Assembly: GCA_903914955.1 (NCBI GenBank)
Contig: CAIWRB010000205.1
Location: 6,208 to 70,207 of the forward strand
Reading direction: 5' to 3'
Origin: an uncultured Chloroflexota bacterium
GTDB lineage: Bacteria > Chloroflexota > Anaerolineae > Anaerolineales > Villigracilaceae
Length of the DNA stretch: 64,000 nucleotides
Part shown: positions 20,887 through 40,080 of the stretch, piece by piece
How the letters are laid out: each line of letters starts with the position of its first letter
Numbering within the stretch: position 1 is the first letter of the stretch
Notes under the pieces: generated by a model
Seen by the model: the letters and a program-made list of their open reading frames with translations, nothing else
What the model was told of the DNA's origin: nothing
Databases searched by the model: none
Made by a program: the position numbers and the translations under genes

Positions 20887-22228
<1,342 letters not shown>

Positions 22229-22245
<17 letters not shown>

Positions 22246-22645
22246 CAGAAGTTGTAGGTTGTTTCCAATTCGCTTTTTCACGTAATCGAATAAAGTATTC
22301 AGTGGCGATCAAGCCACCCGCGAGGCCAAGGATGATGAAAATCGTAACGAGGCGCCCCAATTGAAGCCACGCAAGTGTGGCGAAATAAACGCCCACCCAT
22401 ATTGATTGCCGCACAAGGATGTTTGATTCTGCAGGCGGGTCACTGGTAAAACGATGATTCAAAAAATATACGATCGGCATGGCCGTGCCTGTGAGCGCCA
22501 TGATGCCAAAAACATAGAAACCCCAGCGTGACCAAACTAATGGAAGGGAAAAATAAAACAGTGCAGCAAGTCCGCCCCAACCAAAGATGATCAGGGTAAG
22601 TACGGATGGCAGGTAATTTCGGAACGTGATTTTTTGCGTGTCCAT
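22229..22645 (-). CDS. Hypothetical membrane protein (about four TM helices)
   Basis: Hydrophobic helices; overlaps the selA start; start assigned to MDTQKITF. Confidence 0.75.
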
Positions 22646-22899: not shown

Positions 22900-24426
22900 T
22901 CACTTCCCCAAAATCCCTATTTCGTTTTCAACTTCCTCTAAAATCTCACCGGATTTCACCAGAGCCTTCATCTTGTTATGATCGGTATAAAGCGGACGAT
23001 CCACTTCAAGATGATCGACATACCGGCGAATGACTTCGCGCGCTTTGAGCGAGCCCTTGCCCGGCGTGAACTCACGGAAGTCGAGCGCCTGCGCGGCGGC
23101 CATGAATTCAATACCAAGGATCCCATACGCGTTATCCAATATTTGACCATTCTTCAGCGCGGTGTTCATGCCCATTGACACAAAATCCTCCTGATCTGCC
23201 GCGGCAGGAATGGAAAGGATCGACGCCGGTGCGGAAAGAATTCTTTGCTCAACGATTAAATGATCGGCAGTGTACTGCGAGAGCATCAAGCCGGAATAAA
23301 AACCCGGCTCATGCGCAAGAAAATCTGGCAAACCTTGCGATAAAGCGGGGTTGGTCAAACGATTGAGCCTGCGTTCTGATAAAACACAAACCATCGTGAT
23401 GGCAATACCCGCCATATCCATCGGTAGTGAAACGGGCGAGCCTTGAAAGTTCGCCCCGGTCAAGGTCAGATTCAACTCAGGCACAAAGATCGGGTTATCG
23501 CCCACACCGTTCAATTCTATTTCAACCTGTACTCGCGCATACCCGATCGCATCACGCGCCGCGCCAATGACCTGTGGCGACGAACGCATCGAATACGCAT
23601 CCTGCACTTTCGTTTTCATCTTGCCGGTCGTCAAATCTGAGCCTTCGACTAGTTTCGAAATATTTTTTGCAGATGTGATCGCGCCTTTGAATCCGCGCAA
23701 CTCATGCAATTTGGTATTGTATGGTTTCATATTCCCAAGCAGCGCTTCAATAGACATGGCCGCGGCGATCTCTGTCTGCTTGATAAATCTTTCCATGTCA
23801 TAGATTTGAAGCGCCGACATGGCTGTCAGAAGATTGGATCCATTGATCGCGGCCAGACCATCCCGCGCCTGCAAGCCGGGGACTTCGATCCCAGCCCGCC
23901 GCATCGCCTCTGCGCCTGATAATTGCTCGCCGTTATAAAAGGCTTCTCCTTCCCCCATCAGCAGCAAAGCGGCTTGCGCCATCGGCGCCAGATCACCGCT
24001 AGCACCGACCGATCCTTTCTGACAAACAACCGGCGTGACACCCTTGTTCAACATCTCAACATAAGTCAATGTGATCTCGGGCCGGCAGCCAGAATTCCCG
24101 TGCGCGTGAACGTTGATTCGTCCTGCCAGTGCAGCACGAATATGCTCGATGGGCGCCGGGTCTCCAATTCCCGCCGCGTGGTTGTAGACGAGATATCTTT
24201 GAAATTCCTTTACCTGGTCATCGTTAAGCATCGTCTCAGAGAATTCGCCGATGCCGGTGTTCGTTCCGTACATAACTTCTTTTTTGGCAAGTTTATCTTC
24301 CAGCATCACACGACATATTTTGATGCGCTCCAAGGCTTCGGGGGCTAACTCAACTTTCTCGTTATACCGCGAAATGGAAACTAGTTTTTCAATTGTGAAT
24401 GACGAACCGTCAAGAATGATGGTCAT
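22900..24426 (-). CDS. hutH: MIO-dependent aromatic amino acid ammonia-lyase, most likely histidine ammonia-lyase
   Basis: MYGTNTGIG, GSVGASGDLAP (ASG MIO), QDAYSMR, DNP, QEDFVSMG; AGGAG RBS before ATG 24426. Confidence 0.8.
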   Translation of the reverse strand: MTIILDGSSFTIEKLVSISRYNEKVELAPEALERIKICRVMLEDKLAKKEVMYGTNTGIGEFSETMLNDDQVKEFQRYLVYNHAAGIGDPAPIEHIRAALAGRINVHAHGNSGCRPEITLTYVEMLNKGVTPVVCQKGSVGASGDLAPMAQAALLLMGEGEAFYNGEQLSGAEAMRRAGIEVPGLQARDGLAAINGSNLLTAMSALQIYDMERFIKQTEIAAAMSIEALLGNMKPYNTKLHELRGFKGAITSAKNISKLVEGSDLTTGKMKTKVQDAYSMRSSPQVIGAARDAIGYARVQVEIELNGVGDNPIFVPELNLTLTGANFQGSPVSLPMDMAGIAITMVCVLSERRLNRLTNPALSQGLPDFLAHEPGFYSGLMLSQYTADHLIVEQRILSAPASILSIPAAADQEDFVSMGMNTALKNGQILDNAYGILGIEFMAAAQALDFREFTPGKGSLKAREVIRRYVDHLEVDRPLYTDHNKMKALVKSGEILEEVENEIGILGK

Positions 24427-24479
24427 GGATATTCTCCTGAATGGGATATGTTTTATTGTACCTCCTCTTAAAAACAAAA

Positions 24480-24980: not shown

Positions 24981-25721
24981 ATGTCCAACGAAAAAGAATA
25001 CCTCCCCAAGATCGCGATGTCCATTCAAGCCCACCCTGACGATCAGGATTTTACTGTTGCTGGCACTTTAGCGAAATGGACCAAAGCGGGATGCAAAGTC
25101 ATCTGCGTGCTTATCACCAGCGGCGACTCCGGATCAAATGATGTCACCAAAGGCGCTGAATATAAACCAGTGCTAGCGGAATTGCGCGAGGCAGAGCAGC
25201 GAGCAGCGAACGCTGTGATTGGCATTAGCGAAACAGTTTTCCTTCATTATCCAGATGGAGAACTGGTGGCGAGTCTGGCACTACGCAAGGAGCTGACTCG
25301 CGTCATCCGCAAATACAAACCTGATGTGGTCGTCACTGGCGACCCTTCAGGCTGGTTCTACGGAAATGGATATATCAATCACCCTGACCATCGCGCCGCC
25401 GCAGAAGCCGCCGCGTACGCGGTCTTCCCGTCCGCTGGGACAAGGCTCATCTTCACCGATCTACTCGAAACGGGATATGAACCGCACAACGTTAAACGCT
25501 TATATATTCACGGCTCGGAAAAATCCGATACGTGGATCGATATCAGTGAAACCATCGACACCAAAATTGAAGCTTTGCAGAAACACATCAGCCAGGTGGA
25601 TACGCACGAAGTGGATAAATGGATACGCGATTGGGCGAAGGAAGAAGGCCAAGAAAAAGGCCTCGAGTTCGCCGAGGCTTATCGGGTGATGATCCTGCAA
25701 AACGAGGAAGAAGAAAAGTAA
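24981..25721 (+). CDS. PIG-L/LmbE family N-acetylglucosamine deacetylase
   Basis: AHPDD, TSGDSG, R.AE, YPDG, HPDH motifs. Confidence 0.9.
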   Translation: MSNEKEYLPKIAMSIQAHPDDQDFTVAGTLAKWTKAGCKVICVLITSGDSGSNDVTKGAEYKPVLAELREAEQRAANAVIGISETVFLHYPDGELVASLALRKELTRVIRKYKPDVVVTGDPSGWFYGNGYINHPDHRAAAEAAAYAVFPSAGTRLIFTDLLETGYEPHNVKRLYIHGSEKSDTWIDISETIDTKIEALQKHISQVDTHEVDKWIRDWAKEEGQEKGLEFAEAYRVMILQNEEEEK

Positions 25722-25762: not shown

Positions 25763-26494
25763 CTAGAAAAACAAACTTCCGATCAACACCGAAGCCAGAG
25801 TCATTGTGATGTTATCAATATCTTTGAAGTGCAATGATTCGACCACTGCGCCAGCGAGAGCAATTGCCGTAATGGGTAAAAGATAACTTGTGATCGGGGC
25901 AGGAAATATTCCAGCCAGAATATAAATAAAGATAATGACGAATGACATCAACCAGCCGCCGATAAAAACGCCCAATGTCCCCGCCATGGATTTTTTGCTA
26001 CTCCACGGGAGCTTTGCAGAAACGACGCGACGCCCCACTATATCGGCAATGCCGTCGCCGCCGCACATCATCATTAATGCGACAATGCCGATCGGGGAAT
26101 CTTTCCAATACAGCAATGTCAAAACCACGAACATAAGCCCATAAAAAAGTGGTCCGCGCAAAATTTCCTTCGGGTCACCCGTGCGAGACATGGCCTGGAC
26201 CGAGGCGTCATCCTTTATGACCCCAAACCCGATCAACGCAAATTGAAGAGTGATCGAAAACGGTACCAGCGCGGCCAACCAGCGAGCATCGGGTGTATCG
26301 CGAAAGAGCAACCAACACAGCACAAACAGCGGCCCCGTCCCAATGTGGATGACCTTGCGGCTAAGCTTGCTGTCCATCCAGCCGCGATGGGCAATGTAAT
26401 CCATGGAGCGAAGAAACAACATGGAAAGGGTAAAAGTAATAATGAGGGCAATATAATTATTCAAGGGGTTCTCCTGAAGGAATGGTTTACACAA
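25763..26494 (-). CDS. Phytol/farnesol/dolichol kinase-like membrane protein (CTP-dependent)
   Basis: SRKVIH, RGPLFY, GDGIADIVG, KSMAGT, DNIT motifs. Confidence 0.85.
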   Translation of the reverse strand: MCKPFLQENPLNNYIALIITFTLSMLFLRSMDYIAHRGWMDSKLSRKVIHIGTGPLFVLCWLLFRDTPDARWLAALVPFSITLQFALIGFGVIKDDASVQAMSRTGDPKEILRGPLFYGLMFVVLTLLYWKDSPIGIVALMMMCGGDGIADIVGRRVVSAKLPWSSKKSMAGTLGVFIGGWLMSFVIIFIYILAGIFPAPITSYLLPITAIALAGAVVESLHFKDIDNITMTLASVLIGSLFF

Positions 26495-26636: not shown

Positions 26637-26665
26637 CAAGTTTAGTGATCTACTCGGAGTATTTT

Positions 26666-27055
26666 ATGAAAAAAATATTACTCGTTTGTATATTTGGGTT
26701 GGGCATACTGTTATCTGCATGTGGCTCGAAGGCTGCATCAAGCCCTGCGGCAGATGCAGTTGAAAACTATGTCAATGCGATCGTTGCTAACGATGCAAGC
26801 AAACTCTCTGCGCTTTCCTGCGCAGATTGGGAGTCACAGGCGCTGATCGAGCTGGATTCTCTACAAGCAGTGACATCTACCCTAGATGGTTTTTCCTGCC
26901 AACAATCAGGCGCAGCTGGAGAAATGATCTTGGTCTCTTGCACGGGAAAGATGATCCTTAGCTACAACGGTGAAAATCAGGAGCTTGACCTTTCCACCCG
27001 AACGTATCAAGTTGTACAACAGGGCGGCAATTGGTTAGTTTGTGGTGTGCTGTAA
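26666..27055 (+). CDS. Lipoprotein with four additional Cys
   Basis: Signal peptide with LSAC lipobox; first gene of the MBOAT operon. Confidence 0.8.
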   Translation: MKKILLVCIFGLGILLSACGSKAASSPAADAVENYVNAIVANDASKLSALSCADWESQALIELDSLQAVTSTLDGFSCQQSGAAGEMILVSCTGKMILSYNGENQELDLSTRTYQVVQQGGNWLVCGVL

Positions 27056-27060
27056 ATATT

Positions 27061-27177
27061 TTGAAACACATCTTCTCACGCGAGAATCATTGGGCATTGC
27101 TATTCTGTCTGATATTGATCGCTTTGGTGATCTTCACAGCGGATAGCAGCCCAACATGGATCTATCTGGGTTTTTAG
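27061..27177 (+). CDS. DltX-like small membrane peptide (38 aa), not in the ORF track
   Basis: TTG start; MKHIFSRENHWALLFCLILIALVIFTADSSPTWIYLGF*: one TM helix, polar linker, terminal WIYxxF; stop 1 nt before the MBOAT ATG. Start could alternatively be TTG 27040. Confidence 0.8.
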   Translation: MKHIFSRENHWALLFCLILIALVIFTADSSPTWIYLGF

Positions 27178-27178
27178 C

Positions 27179-28606
27179 ATGACGATCATTCAAATTCTGG
27201 TCATCGCGGCGGCCGCTTTGTTCTGGGGGCTGGTCATGCGTGAACGCGGCCGTTCCTATTTCCTCTTGATCACAAGCGTCATCGTGATTTTCTGGCTGCA
27301 GCCAAGCCTGCCTTTGCGCGGATTCGATTTTTGGATTCCCACTTCAACGCTCATCGTGGCGGTTTTCAGCTGGTACATCAGCGCATCTGAAGAATCGCGC
27401 CGCGAAAAAAAGAATTGGGGCACTATTTCAATTTTGGCGGGAATGATCTTATTCATTAATCTAACTCGCTTCCTTCCATTTGATTCGATAATCACGCGCT
27501 CCCGTCCGCCTCAAACTGTTTTTTTATTTATGGTTCTGGCGTTATCTGGATTGCTTTTCTTTTTTATAACACGCCTGAAACATTTCAATCCATCATTATT
27601 ATCCACAAGCATCATCGGACTTATTGCAGTTTTTCTTGCGCTCAAAGTTCCGGCGCTTGCTTACTGGGTCAGCTATGGAATTCGGTCACTCGCGAATCAA
27701 TCATTACTCGAAGCCGCGAGTACTGACTTGCGCTGGCTTGGGTTTTCATACATTGCCTTCCGTATTATCCACACCCTGCGTGACCGTCAAATGGGACGAT
27801 TGCCAGTGGTTGACCTCGCAGAATATGTGACCTATATTATTTTTTTCCCCGCTTTCACCGCGGGTCCCATTGACCGCATCGAACGATTTATCAAAGACCT
27901 GCGTACACCTCCCACTCCTGACAACGACGAATTATTAATTGCAGGTCAACGCTTTATGATGGGCCTATTCAAAAAATTTGTCATCGCCGACGCCCTGGCA
28001 TTGATCGCATTGAATGACACAAACGCATTACAAATCCGTTCGACTGGCTGGATGTGGATGTTACTGTACGCCTACGCATTTCAGATCTACTTTGACTTTA
28101 GCGGCTACACTGATATCGCGATCGGGGTTTCCCGCCTGCTGGGGATTCAGTTACCAGAGAATTTTTCTGCGCCTTATCAAAAGCCAAACTTGACCCAGTT
28201 CTGGAATAACTGGCACATAACGCTGACTCAATGGTTCCGCGCGTATTTCTTTAACCCTGTCACTCGCTGGCTGAGGTCTTGGAAAAAGCCCATGCCTGCG
28301 CCAGTCATGATCGCGCTGACACAGATCGCCACCATGTTGTTGATCGGTTTCTGGCATGGTGTCACCTGGAATTTTGCGCTGTGGGGTCTGTGGCATGGAG
28401 TCGGTTTGTTCATCCACAACCGTTGGAGTGACATGACCAAAGTCCGCGCTGCGGCATGGGCGACAACACCATCGAGAAAAACTTTATTAAATGTGAGCGG
28501 AATAATTATCACATTTAACTTCGTAGCGCTCGGCTGGATATTTTTTGCATTATCTTCAACGTCCACTTCAATGCAGGTATTTTTGAAATTATTTGGGTTG
28601 CGCTAA
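27179..28606 (+). CDS. MBOAT family O-acyltransferase (DltB/AlgI-like)
   Basis: GFSYIAFR, FFPAFTAGPIDR, YFDFSGYTDIA, FWNNWHITL, GFWHG catalytic His. Confidence 0.94.
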   Translation: MTIIQILVIAAAALFWGLVMRERGRSYFLLITSVIVIFWLQPSLPLRGFDFWIPTSTLIVAVFSWYISASEESRREKKNWGTISILAGMILFINLTRFLPFDSIITRSRPPQTVFLFMVLALSGLLFFFITRLKHFNPSLLSTSIIGLIAVFLALKVPALAYWVSYGIRSLANQSLLEAASTDLRWLGFSYIAFRIIHTLRDRQMGRLPVVDLAEYVTYIIFFPAFTAGPIDRIERFIKDLRTPPTPDNDELLIAGQRFMMGLFKKFVIADALALIALNDTNALQIRSTGWMWMLLYAYAFQIYFDFSGYTDIAIGVSRLLGIQLPENFSAPYQKPNLTQFWNNWHITLTQWFRAYFFNPVTRWLRSWKKPMPAPVMIALTQIATMLLIGFWHGVTWNFALWGLWHGVGLFIHNRWSDMTKVRAAAWATTPSRKTLLNVSGIIITFNFVALGWIFFALSSTSTSMQVFLKLFGLR

Positions 28607-28656: not shown

Positions 28657-29751
28657 ATGAAAACACTTAATATCATCGTAAAAGGTTTGTCTCTTTTTAT
28701 TATTATCAATTTACTATTCACCATCCTGCAGCCAGAGATCGGGCGTCTGTCGGCTTATAACATCATATTTCCAGGGCGGGAACGATTGCCATTTGGAGAG
28801 AATTCTGCGAAGGCTTATAACCTGAGTCTCTTTGATCTGAATGCAATGTTCGCTTCACATAGAATCGATGGCGACCAGAAACAGGCTGATGAATTTCGTG
28901 TGATTTTGATCGGAGACTCTTCTGTTTGGGGGACATTGCTTAAACCTGAAGAGTCACTTGCGGGTCAACTTAATTCTGCAAACATTTCGGCGTGCGGAAA
29001 AAATGTGACTGTTTATAATCTTGGGTATCCGACCATTTCGTTGACGAAAGATTTGCTTTTGCTATCACACGCAATAAAGTATCAACCTGACCTGATCATT
29101 TGGCTGACAACACTGGAAGCATTTCCATTGGAGAAACAGATCGCATCGCCGTTGGTCGCTAACAATCAAGAGTCTCTCCTTCGTTTGGCAAACAGCTACA
29201 GGCTTAAGGTTGATTCGAATGACCCTGCCTTTAATCGGGACTCGTTTTGGGGCAGTACCATCATTGGAAAGCAGAGAGCGCTCGCAGATGTCTTCCGCTT
29301 GCAATTTTATGGTGTACTATGGGCCGCCACTGGCATTGACCAAATTTATCCATCTGATTTCACGAAGGCACAAACCGATTTTAAAGTTGACCAGAAATTT
29401 CATGAATTTGAGCCGCCTGTGCTGGATGAAAATTCGCTAGCAATCAACGCTCTCGAAACCGGAATGGATTTGGCGGGCGACACGCCTATAATAATCGTCA
29501 ATGAACCGATCTTGATCAGCGACGGAAAAAATAGCGACATCCGCTATAATTTCTTTTATCCACGCTGGGCATATGACCAGTATCGAGCCTTGATGGTTGC
29601 GCAAAGTAAAATAAATAATTGGAATTATGTTGATCTTTGGGATGCCGTGCCCGCGAATGAATTTACGAACAGCGCGATCCATCTCACCCCGCGTGGAGAG
29701 ACTCAACTGGCCGAAAAAATTGAACCTGTCATCACAACAGTTTGCAGATGA
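28657..29751 (+). CDS. Membrane-anchored SGNH-like protein (DltD/AlgJ-like acyltransferase candidate)
   Basis: N-terminal TM helix, IGDSSVWG block I, NLGYP block II, C-terminal FTNSAIHL. Confidence 0.7.
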   Translation: MKTLNIIVKGLSLFIIINLLFTILQPEIGRLSAYNIIFPGRERLPFGENSAKAYNLSLFDLNAMFASHRIDGDQKQADEFRVILIGDSSVWGTLLKPEESLAGQLNSANISACGKNVTVYNLGYPTISLTKDLLLLSHAIKYQPDLIIWLTTLEAFPLEKQIASPLVANNQESLLRLANSYRLKVDSNDPAFNRDSFWGSTIIGKQRALADVFRLQFYGVLWAATGIDQIYPSDFTKAQTDFKVDQKFHEFEPPVLDENSLAINALETGMDLAGDTPIIIVNEPILISDGKNSDIRYNFFYPRWAYDQYRALMVAQSKINNWNYVDLWDAVPANEFTNSAIHLTPRGETQLAEKIEPVITTVCR

Positions 29752-29831: not shown

Positions 29832-30779
29832 ATGGTTAAAGCTCGATATGCATTGTTGGTCTTGATCGCGTTTTGGATGGTTGCATGCAATAGTGGTGCC
29901 GTCCAAACTGCAATTACCCCCACGACGAAAAAAGCCACATCAACACCACATCAGGTTGGTGCACCTGTTGCAACTCAAACCTCTACTGAAACGGCGGCAA
30001 CTTCCACTCCCCACCCTACGCTCGCGGTGGATGAATGGGAAATCCTGCCAATCATCCCGACGGTCAGTGATACAGTACGCGAGATCTACCGTCGTGGACT
30101 TAAGTTGGGCAACGATCCAAACGCGTTTTCAAAAGTTGGCGACTGCCAAACCAGTACTGATTTCTTTCTGGTAAATTTTGAAAATCCCAAACAATATAGT
30201 TTGGGAGATGAGTATTCTTTTTTACAATCCACAATTGATTATTATCATGGCTCATTCTCGCGACAAAGCATGGCGGTCAAGGATGGTTTCAATGTGGCGG
30301 CAGTTCTCTCTCCGCTGCGGGCTGATCCGAAACTTTGCAATAAAGGTGAAACTCCGTTGGCGTGTGAAATTCGATTGAACCATCCATCGGTAATTCTCAT
30401 CAGCATGGAAACAAATTTTAATTTACAGACCGCGACAAAGTACGGCGGGTATATGCGCCAGATCGTTGAATATTCCATTTCGCAAGGAGTGGTGCCAATC
30501 ATTGCGACGAAGGCCGATAACAAGGAAGGCGATAATAGCATCAACGCCGAGATCGCCGAAATCGCCATTGAATACGATATCCCTTTGTGGAATTTCTGGG
30601 CCGCAGTTCATGACCTGCCAAATAACGGATTTGACCTGAGCCTTAATGATGGATTTCATCTTTCGCTTGGTAATAATTATTTTTTTGATGACCCAAAGAA
30701 TATGGACAGTGCCTGGCCCTGGCGAAATCTCACTGCTTTACAAACGTTGGATGCTGTCCGAAATGGGTTGAATAATTAA
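29832..30779 (+). CDS. SGNH-like lipoprotein with T/P-rich linker
   Basis: MVAC lipobox-like site, Thr/Pro linker, FSKVGDCQT block I, METN block III, DGFHLS block V. Confidence 0.7.
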   Translation: MVKARYALLVLIAFWMVACNSGAVQTAITPTTKKATSTPHQVGAPVATQTSTETAATSTPHPTLAVDEWEILPIIPTVSDTVREIYRRGLKLGNDPNAFSKVGDCQTSTDFFLVNFENPKQYSLGDEYSFLQSTIDYYHGSFSRQSMAVKDGFNVAAVLSPLRADPKLCNKGETPLACEIRLNHPSVILISMETNFNLQTATKYGGYMRQIVEYSISQGVVPIIATKADNKEGDNSINAEIAEIAIEYDIPLWNFWAAVHDLPNNGFDLSLNDGFHLSLGNNYFFDDPKNMDSAWPWRNLTALQTLDAVRNGLNN

Positions 30780-30802: not shown

Positions 30803-31048
30803 ATGACCGAAAACATAACCTCCACCCTAGCAAAATTTATCGCGGAAAAAATATTGAGGCAGGCGAATAAAATTGTGAAACCTGATGAAGCACTGATATC
30901 CAGCGGCTTGATCGATTCTTTTAGTTTGATGGATCTGGCATTATTCGTTGAAGATACTTTCAACGTGCGAATCGAGGACACCGAGTTGAATGCTCAGACT
31001 TTCGATAATTTATCCCAGCTGACAGACTTGATCGCCTCGCGGCAGTAG
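30803..31048 (+). CDS. Acyl carrier protein, DltC-like
   Basis: ISSGLIDSFSLMDL phosphopantetheine site (DSF), FNVRIED; AGGAG RBS. Confidence 0.9.
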   Translation: MTENITSTLAKFIAEKILRQANKIVKPDEALISSGLIDSFSLMDLALFVEDTFNVRIEDTELNAQTFDNLSQLTDLIASRQ

Positions 31049-33076: not shown

Positions 33077-33435
33077 AATGAATGGATTCACCAGTGAGTT
33101 AAAGGCTTATTATCAAACTAACCCACTCGGATACTCCCTCTGTGAGTTCAACTTGCGTAGATACTCTGGTGAAACACAAAATGTAGACCAACAAAAGAGC
33201 AATTGAATTGGCAAATTGCTCGTAGCCTTGCAAGAAACTTCTAAACTCATAATAATAAGTATCAGAGTGGCTACACCTGTTTTCTTTTTGACCCTTGTGC
33301 TTTCTCACTACGAAATCCTGTCATAATCATACACTCACTGGATGGTAAAATAATTAATGGTAACCCGCCATGCTGATTGATCTGGCATGGAAAAACATAA
33401 CCCAAATGATTTGCGATTGGATGACAGGTGAAATC

Positions 33436-34962
33436 ATGTTTCTGGTAAGAGATCGACTAAAGCCAATTACAAAACTGATGTTTATTGGATTGTGTATTTT
33501 CACTTTAGGATTCATTCTACGCGCGCGACAATACCTTGCAAATCGTTCATTATGGGGCGACGAAGCGAGTTTGGCAGTTAATATTGTCTCTCGATCATTT
33601 ATCGGCTTGACCGACCCGCTTGGATATCATCAAGCAGCCCCACTAGGTTTTCTATTCATCGAGAAATTTTTCATTGTTCTTTTGGGGAACAAAGATTATA
33701 TTCTGCGCCTTTTTCCGTTCATATCTGGAATTCTGGCATTTTATTTGATCTATCGCATCGCAATAGATTATTTTGGTGTGGCCGGAATATTTGCGCTTAT
33801 AATGTTTGCCCTTAACTCGTGGTTGATATTCTACTCTTCCGAGCTCAAACAGTATGGCAGCGATGTAATGGTCGCCCTATTGCTGGTTTATTTGTCTATC
33901 CGCTGTCTCAACGAGGAGCTACAGATAAGGGATATTATATGGTTAGGCGTTGCGGGTGTCATCACAATCTGGATATCCCACATAGCCGTATTCATTTTGG
34001 TAGGGGCTGGATTTAGCCTGGTTCTTGAAAAAATCGCGCAGAAAAAAAATATACCCGCCAGTTGGCTACTAAGTCTTGGTATTGCGTGGCTCATTTCATT
34101 TGGCATAGACTATCTTGTCGCATTACGACATACAGCTACAGATAAATTTTTTCAAACCTATTGGATGAAAGCCTTCCTCCCTTTACCCCCTTGGAGTAAC
34201 CCTTCCTGGTTTGTTAATGTCTATTATAAATTTGTACTTATAACCTTGAACAGAGCTGATGAGGTTTCATTTTATATGATCCTTGTTCTTGTGATTATTG
34301 GCAGTTTATCGCTTATTAAAAGGAGACAGAATATTGCCCTGATCCTCATTTCTCCATTCATTATGACCTTAATCGCCTCTGCCTGGCAAAAATACCCTCT
34401 TACATATAGGTTCATGCTCTTTCTGGTCCCATTGGCATTGCTATTAATGGCGGAGGGTATTGGAAGAATTTATTTACTCATTGCAAAGTGGCGGAGAGAT
34501 ATTGCTATATTTTTAATCGGAATTCCTATCGCGGTAATGTTTTTCTTTTCAATTCAAAGTGCTGTAGCTGATTTCAGATCTCCTCCTACAATCACAGAAA
34601 TAAAACCAATTATGAAATATATTGAAGAAAACAAGAAGCAGGGAGATGTTATTTATTTGTATTATGGCTCCGTCCCTGCCTTTATCTACTATGCTCCTTT
34701 TTATCATCTTGATACAGAAAATATCATCATGGGCATATACAGACAAAGCAATGTAAAAGCGCTCAACCGTTTTCTTGATGATGTAAAAGGGCTTAGGGGG
34801 AATAACAGGGTGTGGTTCGTCATAGCTGAAATTACCTATTGTGACAACTGTGTGGGTGATCGCAGACTGTTTTTCACTAACTACCTTGATAAAAATGGAA
34901 CGAATTTGCAAAGTATTTTGGCTACAAATGCGGAAGCATATCTTTACGATCTAAGCCCGTAG
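33436..34962 (+). CDS. GT-C fold glycosyltransferase (ArnT/PMT_2-like), AT-rich
   Basis: RSLWGDEA loop motif, ELKQY, about 11-13 TM helices and a C-terminal extracytoplasmic domain; start at 33436 or 33370. Confidence 0.82.
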   Translation: MFLVRDRLKPITKLMFIGLCIFTLGFILRARQYLANRSLWGDEASLAVNIVSRSFIGLTDPLGYHQAAPLGFLFIEKFFIVLLGNKDYILRLFPFISGILAFYLIYRIAIDYFGVAGIFALIMFALNSWLIFYSSELKQYGSDVMVALLLVYLSIRCLNEELQIRDIIWLGVAGVITIWISHIAVFILVGAGFSLVLEKIAQKKNIPASWLLSLGIAWLISFGIDYLVALRHTATDKFFQTYWMKAFLPLPPWSNPSWFVNVYYKFVLITLNRADEVSFYMILVLVIIGSLSLIKRRQNIALILISPFIMTLIASAWQKYPLTYRFMLFLVPLALLLMAEGIGRIYLLIAKWRRDIAIFLIGIPIAVMFFFSIQSAVADFRSPPTITEIKPIMKYIEENKKQGDVIYLYYGSVPAFIYYAPFYHLDTENIIMGIYRQSNVKALNRFLDDVKGLRGNNRVWFVIAEITYCDNCVGDRRLFFTNYLDKNGTNLQSILATNAEAYLYDLSP

Positions 34963-38793: not shown

Positions 38794-40080
38794 ATGACAA
38801 ATTCGCGCATCTCTGGATTTTACAATCTGACTATCGAAGAACGCCGCGTCAAACTTGCGGAAGCCGCGGGTCAGACTCCCGAAAGCCTGCTCCCGTTTAC
38901 TACAGGCGGTCTCTCTGCTGAATCAGCCGACCACATGATCGAAAATGTGATCGGCATGTTTGCGCTCCCAGTCGGCATCGGACTGAACTTCATGGTCAAC
39001 GGCCGCGATGTGTTGATTCCCTTTGTAGTGGAAGAACCATCAGTTGTAGCTGGCGCATCCTTTATGGCAAAACTGGCACGCGCAGGCGGCGGATTTATAG
39101 CCACCACAACCGAGCCTTTGATGATCGGACAAATGCAGTTGATCAACGTGGTCAACATGAATGAAGCGCGGCTGAAAATATATGAGCACAAAGCCGAGCT
39201 GCTCGCTGTTGCAGATTCCATTGACCCGATCCTGAAGAAATTTGGCGGCGGCGCACGCGATTTGGAAGTGCGTATGATCGAAGAATCGGCCATCGGCCCG
39301 TTCATCGTCATTCATCTTATTTATGACGTGCGCGACGCGATGGGCGCGAACGCGGTCAACACAGCCTGTGAAAAACTTGCACCACAAATTGAAACCATCA
39401 CAGGCGGAAAAGTCCATTTGAAAATATTATCAAATCTCGCAGATAGAAGAATTGCGCGCGTACGCGCCACCATCCCTGTCAGCGAGCTGACCGTTGGATT
39501 TGAATCCTTCAAAGGTGAAACCGTGCGCGATGGAATCATCGCCGCTTATGCTTTCGCCGCATCCGATCCCTATCGCGCCGCCACCCACAATAAGGGAATC
39601 ATGAACGGCGTGGACTCGGTCGTCATCGCCACGGGCAACGACTGGCGCGCCATCGAAGCGGGCGCACACGCTTACGCCGCTCGCAATGGACAATACACAG
39701 CATTATCCACTTGGGGCAAGGATAAAGATGGTAACCTGGTTGGCACACTCGAAATGCCGATGGCAGTGGGCATCGTCGGCGGCGCGACCAAAGTCCATCC
39801 CGCCGCGCAAGCCGCAGTGAAGCTCATGGGCGTGAAGACCGCATCCGAATTGGCTGAGATCATCGTCTCTGTTGGACTTGCTCAAAACATGGCCGCCCTG
39901 CGCGCGCTCGCCACCGAAGGCATTCAACGCGGACACATGTCCCTGCACGCAAGGCAGGTCGCCATCGCTGCTGGCGCATCTGGCGAGTTGATCGAAAAGG
40001 TGGCCGCGCAAATGGTAGCGGAGAAGGTTGTGCGCGTGGATCGTGCGGAAGAAATTTTGAGTGGAATGAAAAACAATTAA
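38794..40080 (+). CDS. mvaA: Class II HMG-CoA reductase
   Basis: ENVIG, EEPSVVA, DAMGAN, THNKG, EGIQRGHMSLH. Confidence 0.95.
   Translation: MTNSRISGFYNLTIEERRVKLAEAAGQTPESLLPFTTGGLSAESADHMIENVIGMFALPVGIGLNFMVNGRDVLIPFVVEEPSVVAGASFMAKLARAGGGFIATTTEPLMIGQMQLINVVNMNEARLKIYEHKAELLAVADSIDPILKKFGGGARDLEVRMIEESAIGPFIVIHLIYDVRDAMGANAVNTACEKLAPQIETITGGKVHLKILSNLADRRIARVRATIPVSELTVGFESFKGETVRDGIIAAYAFAASDPYRAATHNKGIMNGVDSVVIATGNDWRAIEAGAHAYAARNGQYTALSTWGKDKDGNLVGTLEMPMAVGIVGGATKVHPAAQAAVKLMGVKTASELAEIIVSVGLAQNMAALRALATEGIQRGHMSLHARQVAIAAGASGELIEKVAAQMVAEKVVRVDRAEEILSGMKNN

Follow-up and report, generated by a model that had tools for sequence, protein, structure and literature searches.

The window examined here, a stretch of 64,000 nucleotides from an uncultured Chloroflexota bacterium (contig CAIWRB010000205.1), carries on its forward strand a very short gene in front of a gene for a membrane-bound O-acyltransferase (MBOAT). 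The genes of this locus follow one another in the order small lipoprotein, peptide, MBOAT, transmembrane (TM)-anchored SGNH protein, SGNH-like lipoprotein, acyl carrier protein (ACP) and AMP-ligase (Table 1), and this order is kept in most of the related loci that we collected. The original prediction for this locus held that the peptide is a hidden, DltX-like shuttle for acyl groups. We show that the peptide is the product of a genuine gene, which is subject to purifying selection and tightly coupled to that of the MBOAT, and we weigh the proposed function against other explanations.

Sequence and conservation of the microprotein gene

The lipoprotein open reading frame (ORF) ends at 27055, 5 nt upstream of the peptide, and the gap between it and the MBOAT start spans 123 bp (27056-27178), as had been predicted. 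Within this gap lies an ORF of 38 codons, (TTG)LKHIFSRENHWALLFCLILIALVIFTADSSPTWIYLGF*, as read from the sequence and translation of the window. Its TAG stop codon occupies positions 27175-27177, and a single base (c, 27178) separates it from the MBOAT ATG at 27179. The N-terminus of the 38-aa product, (M)KHIFSRENHWALLFCLILIALVIFTADSSPTWIYLGF, is basic; a single hydrophobic helix and then a polar linker follow, and the C-terminus is WIYLGF. Its parts are the invariant residues E8 and N9, a TM core at approximately residues 11-25, the linker TADSSPT and the hexapeptide W33-I34-Y35-L36-G37-F38, so that the architecture described in the original prediction, including the stop 1 nt before the MBOAT gene, is borne out by the sequence. 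An N-in/C-out topology is predicted by the positive-inside rule only.

In-frame TTG codons farther 5' would give products of 45 aa and 48 aa (the latter from 27031). Since orthologues mostly carry ATG at the position that yields 38-39 aa, we consider 27061 the best start; TTG occurs at this position in the window and in the related loci L001, L003 and L005. When the whole 64 kb window was searched in its six frames with a loose pattern (aromatic/aliphatic-x-Y-x-x-aromatic-stop), there was a single match, the peptide ORF. Codon 36 (27166-27168) specifies Leu (CTG) in the window and in L001, and Gln (CAA/CAG) in almost every other family member. The WIYLGF ending is not a read error, because a lake-water DNA run matches the window sequence exactly. 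A scan for promoters and terminators gave nothing decisive.

To place the gene in an evolutionary context, the MBOAT was used to scan one genome per GTDB species, which returned 50 loci. All except one belong to Chloroflexota (49/50), mostly Anaerolineales, with MBOAT identities of 43-96%; the remaining locus is an Oscillospiraceae outgroup (30%). The presence of the peptide was counted in the 47 Chloroflexota loci whose sequence includes the region upstream of the MBOAT gene. A small ORF that keeps the hydrophobic core and the terminal hexapeptide occurs at the equivalent position in 42 of them, with the consensus ...RENLxALLLCLILIALVIFTADSxP[TL]WIYQGF*. W-I-Y is invariant in these 42 loci and the window; of the 43 sequences, 42 have F at the last position and one has Y. 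The check suggested with the original prediction, conservation of [FW]IYxxF upstream of MBOAT orthologues, thus came out in its favor. The TM core and the juxtamembrane E8 and N9 are conserved to the same degree as the C-terminus.

The nucleotide changes behind this conservation are those of a protein-coding gene. Several synonymous codons are in use for the invariant residues E8, N9, P31, W33, I34 and Y35; for example, Y35 is TAT in 32 sequences and TAC in 11, I34 is ATC in 22 and ATT in 21, F38 is TTT in 26 and TTC in 16, and P31 uses all four codons. Over the last 33 codons, entropy at the three codon positions is 0.90, 0.45 and 1.49 bits, third positions being the most variable, and the uncorrected ratio of nonsynonymous to synonymous change (pN/pS) is 0.33 in frame (with pS 0.77, near saturation) versus 1.07 and 1.90 in the shifted frames. 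All three stop codons (TAA, TAG and TGA) occur across the loci. In 33 of 40 loci, the peptide stop codon and the MBOAT start are -1 to +3 nt apart; in the other seven, the distance is 44-111 nt. Because this spacing and the frame relation vary among loci, the peptide and the MBOAT are encoded by two genes; the idea that the peptide is a frameshifted N-terminus of the MBOAT is ruled out by the variable frame and spacing together with the use of all three stop codons.

The family is much larger than this set of loci. A collection of 5.8 billion proteins contains at least 290 peptide clusters at 90% identity, under "hypothetical" or spurious names and with no Pfam domain, and a profile search of 1.84 billion representatives found 189 clusters (50% identity) at E<=1e-3. 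Among the 150 representatives listed of these 189, 121 end in WIYQGF; the Tyr is likewise present in the remaining intact ones, with endings such as FIYQGF, FIYQAF, FLYEGF, LIYQGF, WLYQGF, WVYQGF and WIYQGY. In the isolate Leptolinea sp. HRD-7, the peptide is annotated as a 47-aa hypothetical coding sequence (BCY19582.1) directly 5' of its MBOAT gene. No WIYLGF ending was found among the 120 matches listed of the 290 clusters, the best of which is 89% identical; the TTG-start copies of the window and of its 96%-identical relative L001 therefore have apparently not been called. The expectation that gene callers would miss the peptide thus fits the window copy, but it does not extend to the family, which is called often. 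In addition, an 843-nt contig from a freshwater-sediment metatranscriptome (93% identical) runs unbroken from the lipoprotein gene through an intact ORF into the MBOAT gene, which hints that the genes are co-transcribed in a near relative, with DNA carry-over as a possible source.

Two explanations would deprive the peptide itself of a function. That the ORF arose by chance in an intergenic spacer could be argued from its small size, its TTG start, the lack of an obvious ribosome-binding site and the absence of the window copy from the protein-database matches listed, but all of the conservation and codon evidence refutes this idea, and we give it practically no credence. Alternatively, the ORF could be a regulatory leader, whose translation rather than product controls the MBOAT through translational coupling. 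The close stop-start spacing in most loci would suit such a role, as would the lack of a clear Shine-Dalgarno sequence, none being seen before the MBOAT gene. A leader of this kind is nevertheless highly improbable, given strong purifying selection on the amino acid sequence with turnover of synonymous codons, the presence of a TM helix and of a C-terminal motif that does not vary, and the seven loci that keep the peptide well apart from the MBOAT gene.

The partner MBOAT and the linked genes

Table 1. Microprotein gene and associated genes in the window
Feature	Coordinates	Strand	Evidence
Small lipoprotein (MKKILLVCIFGLGILLSAC...), probable ATG 26666	26645..27055	+	Near-cutoff NCBIfam match; synteny in most loci
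Single-pass membrane microprotein, 38 aa, TTG start	27061..27177	+	Sequence, conservation, coding signature
DltB-like MBOAT, 475 aa	27179..28606	+	Pfam MBOAT 1e-22; NCBIfam DltB; PDB DltB
TM-anchored SGNH/GDSL-fold protein, 364 aa, N-terminal helix 2-24	28657..29751	+	Weak Pfam GDSL_2
SGNH-like lipoprotein, 315 aa, lipobox ...VAC	29832..30779	+	Weak Pfam GDSL_2; orthologue alignment; synteny
Acyl carrier protein, 81 aa, Ser motif GLIDSFSL	30803..31048	+	Pfam PP-binding 5.7e-6; synteny
FAAL-like adenylating enzyme, 559 aa	31115..32794	+	Pfam AMP-binding 7e-42; synteny

The best NCBIfam model for the MBOAT is DltB (229 bits), although the equivalog cutoff of 375 is not reached. Its matches in PDB are only to DltB (6BUG/8JEM, 3e-48), with the NNWH and GFWHG segments aligned to DltB motifs and an N-terminal extension of approximately 80 residues relative to the DltB structures. 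Both His residues of these segments are invariant in 23 orthologues. The protein ends in ...MQVFLKLFGLR, and a C-terminal aromatic motif is absent, as had been noted in the original prediction. In an alignment, it terminates approximately 80 residues before L050 and L054, which are of the fused type, and what is missing is the C-terminal module with F-x-Y-x-x-F. Two controls of the fused type, i.e., Oscillospiraceae L050 and a Bacteroides finegoldii protein, end in FLYANF and FIYFQF, respectively, both reached via two hydrophobic segments. The window MBOAT has neither the two extra C-terminal TM segments nor the motif of the fused AlgI/PatA type. Of the hallmarks of the MBOAT-SGNH acyl-shuttle class (Schultz 2023, Anderson 2025), the catalytic His is found in the MBOAT, and [aromatic]-x-Y-x-x-F is supplied in trans, by the peptide, in the same 42 of 47 loci.

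The next gene encodes the TM-anchored SGNH protein, in which G86-D87-S88-S89 and H342 are invariant in an orthologue alignment. It has 6129 homologues, some of which are named SGNH/GDSL. The best Foldseek matches of its AF2 model (pLDDT 70.8, pTM 0.75) are GDSL esterases, with a probability of 1.0. It has what is expected of an SGNH transferase, namely an extracytoplasmic SGNH fold with a nucleophilic Ser and a His, and we propose that it acts as the second transferase, comparable to DltD or PatB, and receives the acyl group from the peptide Tyr. In the SGNH-like lipoprotein that follows, G103-D104-C105 is invariant in the window and 21 orthologues, D273-x-x-H276 is kept, and C169 and C178 are conserved. 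The invariant G-D-C implies that Cys occupies the usual position of the nucleophilic Ser; judged from these residues, the protein could be a thioester-forming SGNH variant, and we propose for it the role of an accessory esterase or transferase.

The last two genes, for the ACP and the ligase, are syntenic in more than 20 loci. The ACP matches generic NCBIfam ACP models, and its scores with DltC models are weak (17-21 bits versus cutoffs of 52-68). It is proposed to be the cytoplasmic acyl donor to the MBOAT, in analogy to DltC. The ligase is most similar to fatty acyl-AMP ligases (FAALs): FAAL subfamily models of NCBIfam gave 347 and 341 bits, below their cutoffs (347 versus 600), whereas amino-acid adenylation reached approximately 110 bits. 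In PDB, it matches two FAALs best, 3KXW and 3PBK (about 1e-71), in alignments that span the entire length. As far as these similarities go, a FAAL-like enzyme rather than DltA would load the ACP, a point absent from the original prediction, and such an enzyme implies that the system differs in pathway from D-alanylation. The small lipoprotein at the 5' end of the locus, which scored 35.8 bits (cutoff 37) with the NCBIfam Rv0361-family C-terminal domain, could be an accessory protein or an acceptor.

Relation to DltX and the proposed acyl shuttle

According to two reports (PMC12148441, in which Schultz 2023 is summarized, and PMC13653941), DltB transfers D-Ala from DltC to the Tyr in the C-terminal FxYxxF of the microprotein DltX (FIYNEF), and DltX in turn delivers the D-Ala to DltD, an SGNH protein, at its Ser. 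In PatA/AlgI-type systems, the MBOAT itself carries the motif and acetyl-CoA serves as donor, and acyl-Tyr has been demonstrated for DltX (FIYNEF) and PatA (FIYANF). The mechanism invoked in the original prediction, both for DltX and for the fused motif of PatA, is supported by these sources. As a task of a separate peptide, the shuttle role has so far been documented only for DltX, which belongs to the dltXABCD D-alanylation pathway of Gram-positive bacteria (Bacillota).

The peptide resembles DltX in its size class (approximately 40-50 aa), single TM helix, predicted N-in/C-out orientation, polar linker, Tyr at position 3 of the hexapeptide and aromatic end. As in the Dlt system, it is encoded directly 5' of a motif-free DltB-type MBOAT, in operons that also supply a TM-anchored SGNH protein, a carrier protein and an enzyme for adenylation. 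The two differ in sequence: the peptide has RENxxA...C where DltX has KTLFYF...LIYLY, and W is the usual residue at motif position 1. The operon differs in having a FAAL-like ligase instead of DltA, in its occurrence in Chloroflexota, and in the additional Cys-type SGNH-like lipoprotein and small lipoprotein. With PatA/PatB and AlgI/AlgJ/AlgX it shares the type of motif and the relay from MBOAT His to C-terminal Tyr to SGNH Ser to polymer. Unlike those systems, which carry the motif on approximately 80 extra MBOAT residues and use acetyl-CoA as donor with no carrier (PMC12148441), the locus described here has the motif on a separate gene product and is linked to an ACP and a FAAL. Known FAAL-ACP modules (FadD32, Legionella and E. 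coli FAALs) are similar in the full-length alignment of the ligase (about 1e-71) and in the stand-alone ACP, but the known pairs feed polyketide synthases/nonribosomal peptide synthetases or cytoplasmic acyltransferases.

On the basis of these analogies, the following scheme can be proposed. The FAAL-like enzyme would adenylate a carboxylic acid, whose acyl group is probably fatty or of another non-amino kind, and transfer it to the phosphopantetheine arm of the ACP from the same operon. The ACP would dock at the cytoplasmic face of the MBOAT, whose His in GFWHG would move the acyl group across the membrane to Tyr35 of the extracytoplasmic WIY(L/Q)GF. The flexible linker of about 10 residues would then swing the acyl-Tyr over to the TM-anchored SGNH protein, at its active site (Ser88/His342), and this protein may hand the acyl group to an envelope acceptor. 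We infer every chemical step of this scheme, as well as the identity of the acyl group and of the acceptor. Its central element, Y35 as acyl acceptor in trans with the TM-anchored SGNH protein as the next station, is in our view probably correct, because size, topology, TM-motif spacing and the invariant near-terminal Tyr all match and because the MBOAT has no motif of its own. The motif follows the TM helix at a distance like that found in DltX and in the tails of fused MBOATs, and the motif itself (with W or F at position 1), the topology signals and the set of partners agree with the logic of DltX, DltB and DltD. Given the linkage to FAAL and ACP genes, the cargo is more likely to be an acyl group activated by the FAAL than D-Ala.

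Several results weigh against this scheme or against a close relationship to DltX. The Pfam DltX family, PF12459, matched neither the window peptide (E<=0.1) nor 26 family members (E<=10), and NCBIfam gave no match for the window peptide. For reference, we gathered 45 DltX sequences, all of them PF12459 members; the alignment of real DltX proteins reads ...KTLFYF..LIYLYxYxxxxGGxFIYNEF. When the peptide family was compared with 25 real DltX sequences by hhalign, the probability was 7.9% and only the N-termini were aligned. The family profile did not reach Firmicute DltX among the 1.84 billion representatives, and in PDB it found no DltX chain, only a spurious TM match to FtsL. Position 1 of the motif is W, not F, in most family members. 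The TM-anchored SGNH protein had no DltD match in the Pfam scan, and the Asp of the canonical DxxH is absent from it, as read from the alignment.

Variant loci add to these points. Five loci (L036, L037, L038, L042 and L045), whose MBOATs are approximately 45% identical and which include an SGNH gene in four cases and an ACP gene in three, have no aromatic-x-Y-x-x-aromatic peptide within 5-13 kb of locus sequence; the named ones belong to Promineifilaceae or Candidatus Leptovillus. The MBOAT of L038, the only one of the five that was read through, ends in GKLFGFGW with no fused motif. In these loci, either the peptide is encoded elsewhere or the MBOAT works without it. The claim that the mechanism requires a separate peptide is consequently too strong as originally worded, given five loci with neither a linked peptide nor a fused motif, although its premise, an MBOAT that has no motif, holds in the window. 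Moreover, the closest relative (JAPLGS010000099.1, also the contig of L001) carries a paralogous module at L053 8001-10644, approximately 75 kb from L001. It consists of genes for a PIG-L deacetylase, a 42-aa peptide (MKKILNSIFTRENILALLLCLILIALVIFTADTSPTWIYQGF), a 470-aa MBOAT and a 368-aa protein, whereas ACP, FAAL and lipoprotein genes are not adjacent; L014, L022, L028, L030 and L032 appear to be of this subtype as well. A module of this kind implies that a linked carrier protein does not serve as donor in every case, and that the conserved core comprises the peptide, the MBOAT and the TM-anchored SGNH protein, with a carrier-protein donor in one subtype only.

Two readings keep a functional peptide but assign it another nature. 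The peptide might be a structural or assembly subunit that joins the MBOAT to the TM-anchored SGNH protein or stabilizes the MBOAT, its C-terminus serving as a binding epitope that carries no acyl group. The equal conservation of the TM core and E8/N9, the five loci in which no peptide is linked, and the fact that DltX also scaffolds the DltB-DltX-DltD complex (PMC12148441) are in line with such a subunit. It would leave unaccounted for an invariant Tyr that corresponds exactly in position to the acylated Tyr of DltX and PatA, with a polar linker before it and the free C-terminus three residues farther on, next to an MBOAT that lacks an acceptor motif of its own; we therefore regard a purely structural role as unlikely. 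The other reading, a true but highly diverged DltX in a Chloroflexota D-alanylation (Dlt) operon, could appeal to a gene layout that recalls dltXABCD and to an MBOAT that finds DltB as its best NCBIfam model and only DltB in PDB. Against it stand the bit scores and best structures of the ligase, which are those of FAALs and not of amino-acid adenylation, the weak DltC scores of the ACP, the failure of the peptide with PF12459 and hhalign, the MBOAT score below the DltB equivalog cutoff together with the N-terminal extension, and the SGNH protein without a DltD match, and a D-alanylation operon in this sense is quite improbable.

We therefore return to the peptide as an acyl shuttle that is not itself DltX. 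The window operon does not have the DltA, DltC and DltD members of a D-alanylation operon, and the peptide shares with DltX the microprotein architecture with a TM helix and C-terminal hexapeptide but not the sequence profile. The term "DltX-like" thus holds for architecture and motif, not for membership in the Pfam family. As no homology is detectable by PF12459 or hhalign, the peptide is better viewed as a functional analogue from an unannotated family than as a DltX member. For so short a protein, an independent origin, for example by a split of a fused MBOAT tail, and extreme divergence are indistinguishable.

In the course of these comparisons, an orphan dltB was observed on the 14 kb plasmid pLmYK1 of Ligilactobacillus murinus (L051 3453-4861), beside a bactofencin-family bacteriocin gene. 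The plasmid has no dltX, dltA, dltC or dltD, and this dltB is presumably an immunity gene.

Genomic surroundings and significance

Several neighbors of the operon may be noted. Both peptide-MBOAT modules have, just 5' of them, a gene for a PIG-L/LmbE-family deacetylase, for which BshB1 is the best NCBIfam model, with a score below cutoff; it lies at 24981-25721 (+) in the window, 1.3 kb upstream, and at 7243-7971 in L053, where it is adjacent; in L001, L004, L005 and L049 it also lies 1.4-4.4 kb upstream of the peptide. The acceptor or its precursor could thus be a de-N-acetylated amino sugar. Between the deacetylase and the lipoprotein gene, at 25763-26494 (-), a divergent gene encodes a 243-aa multi-pass membrane protein with no Pfam or NCBIfam family, which is syntenic in the nearest relatives (L001-L006, L010, L046 and L049). 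By our reading, its ...SRKxxHxxxG... and ...GGDGxADxxGRR... segments may recall CTP-dependent polyprenol kinases. Just 3' of the FAAL gene, Pfam places a PMT_2/GT-C-type membrane glycosyltransferase (33370-34962, +). Other Pfam assignments in the window include HMG-CoA reductase (38794-40080, +), selenocysteine synthase SelA (20887-22281, -) and an aromatic amino-acid ammonia-lyase (22900-24477, -).

Full-text searches of the literature revealed no description of a FAAL-ACP-MBOAT-SGNH cluster or of shuttle microproteins other than those of Dlt, and no paper in the collection searched ties FAAL-ACP pairs to an MBOAT-SGNH export route. A paper on N-acetylation of Bacillus lipoproteins that was considered proved unrelated to the peptide-MBOAT system. 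In the literature of 2025 (PMC12148441), MBOAT acylation pathways other than Dlt are described as having neither a DltX-like microprotein nor a carrier protein.

By analogy with DltX, the peptide most likely represents a second family of stand-alone acyl-shuttle microproteins, unannotated, found in another phylum, associated with a different, FAAL-linked loading module and comprising approximately 190 clusters. A broader proposal, which we offer tentatively and with considerable doubt, is that monoderm Chloroflexota possess a route of extracytoplasmic lipidation or acylation that has not been described before. In such a route, a FAAL-activated, ACP-borne acyl group, long-chain or unusual rather than D-Ala or acetate, would pass through a DltB-like MBOAT to the Tyr of a microprotein that arose independently of DltX, then to one or two SGNH-type enzymes, one of them using Cys, and finally to an envelope glycopolymer or the co-encoded lipoprotein.

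With these data, a family of "hypothetical proteins" gains a testable function, and the stand-alone and fused forms of the motif offer a natural split/fused comparison for the Tyr-shuttle mechanism. The case is also a concrete argument for annotating genes of less than 50 aa beside MBOAT genes. Anaerolineae are filamentous bacteria that abound in lakes, sediments and wastewater sludge, and the microprotein is a pointer to an acyl modification of their cell envelope that has now been made directly testable.

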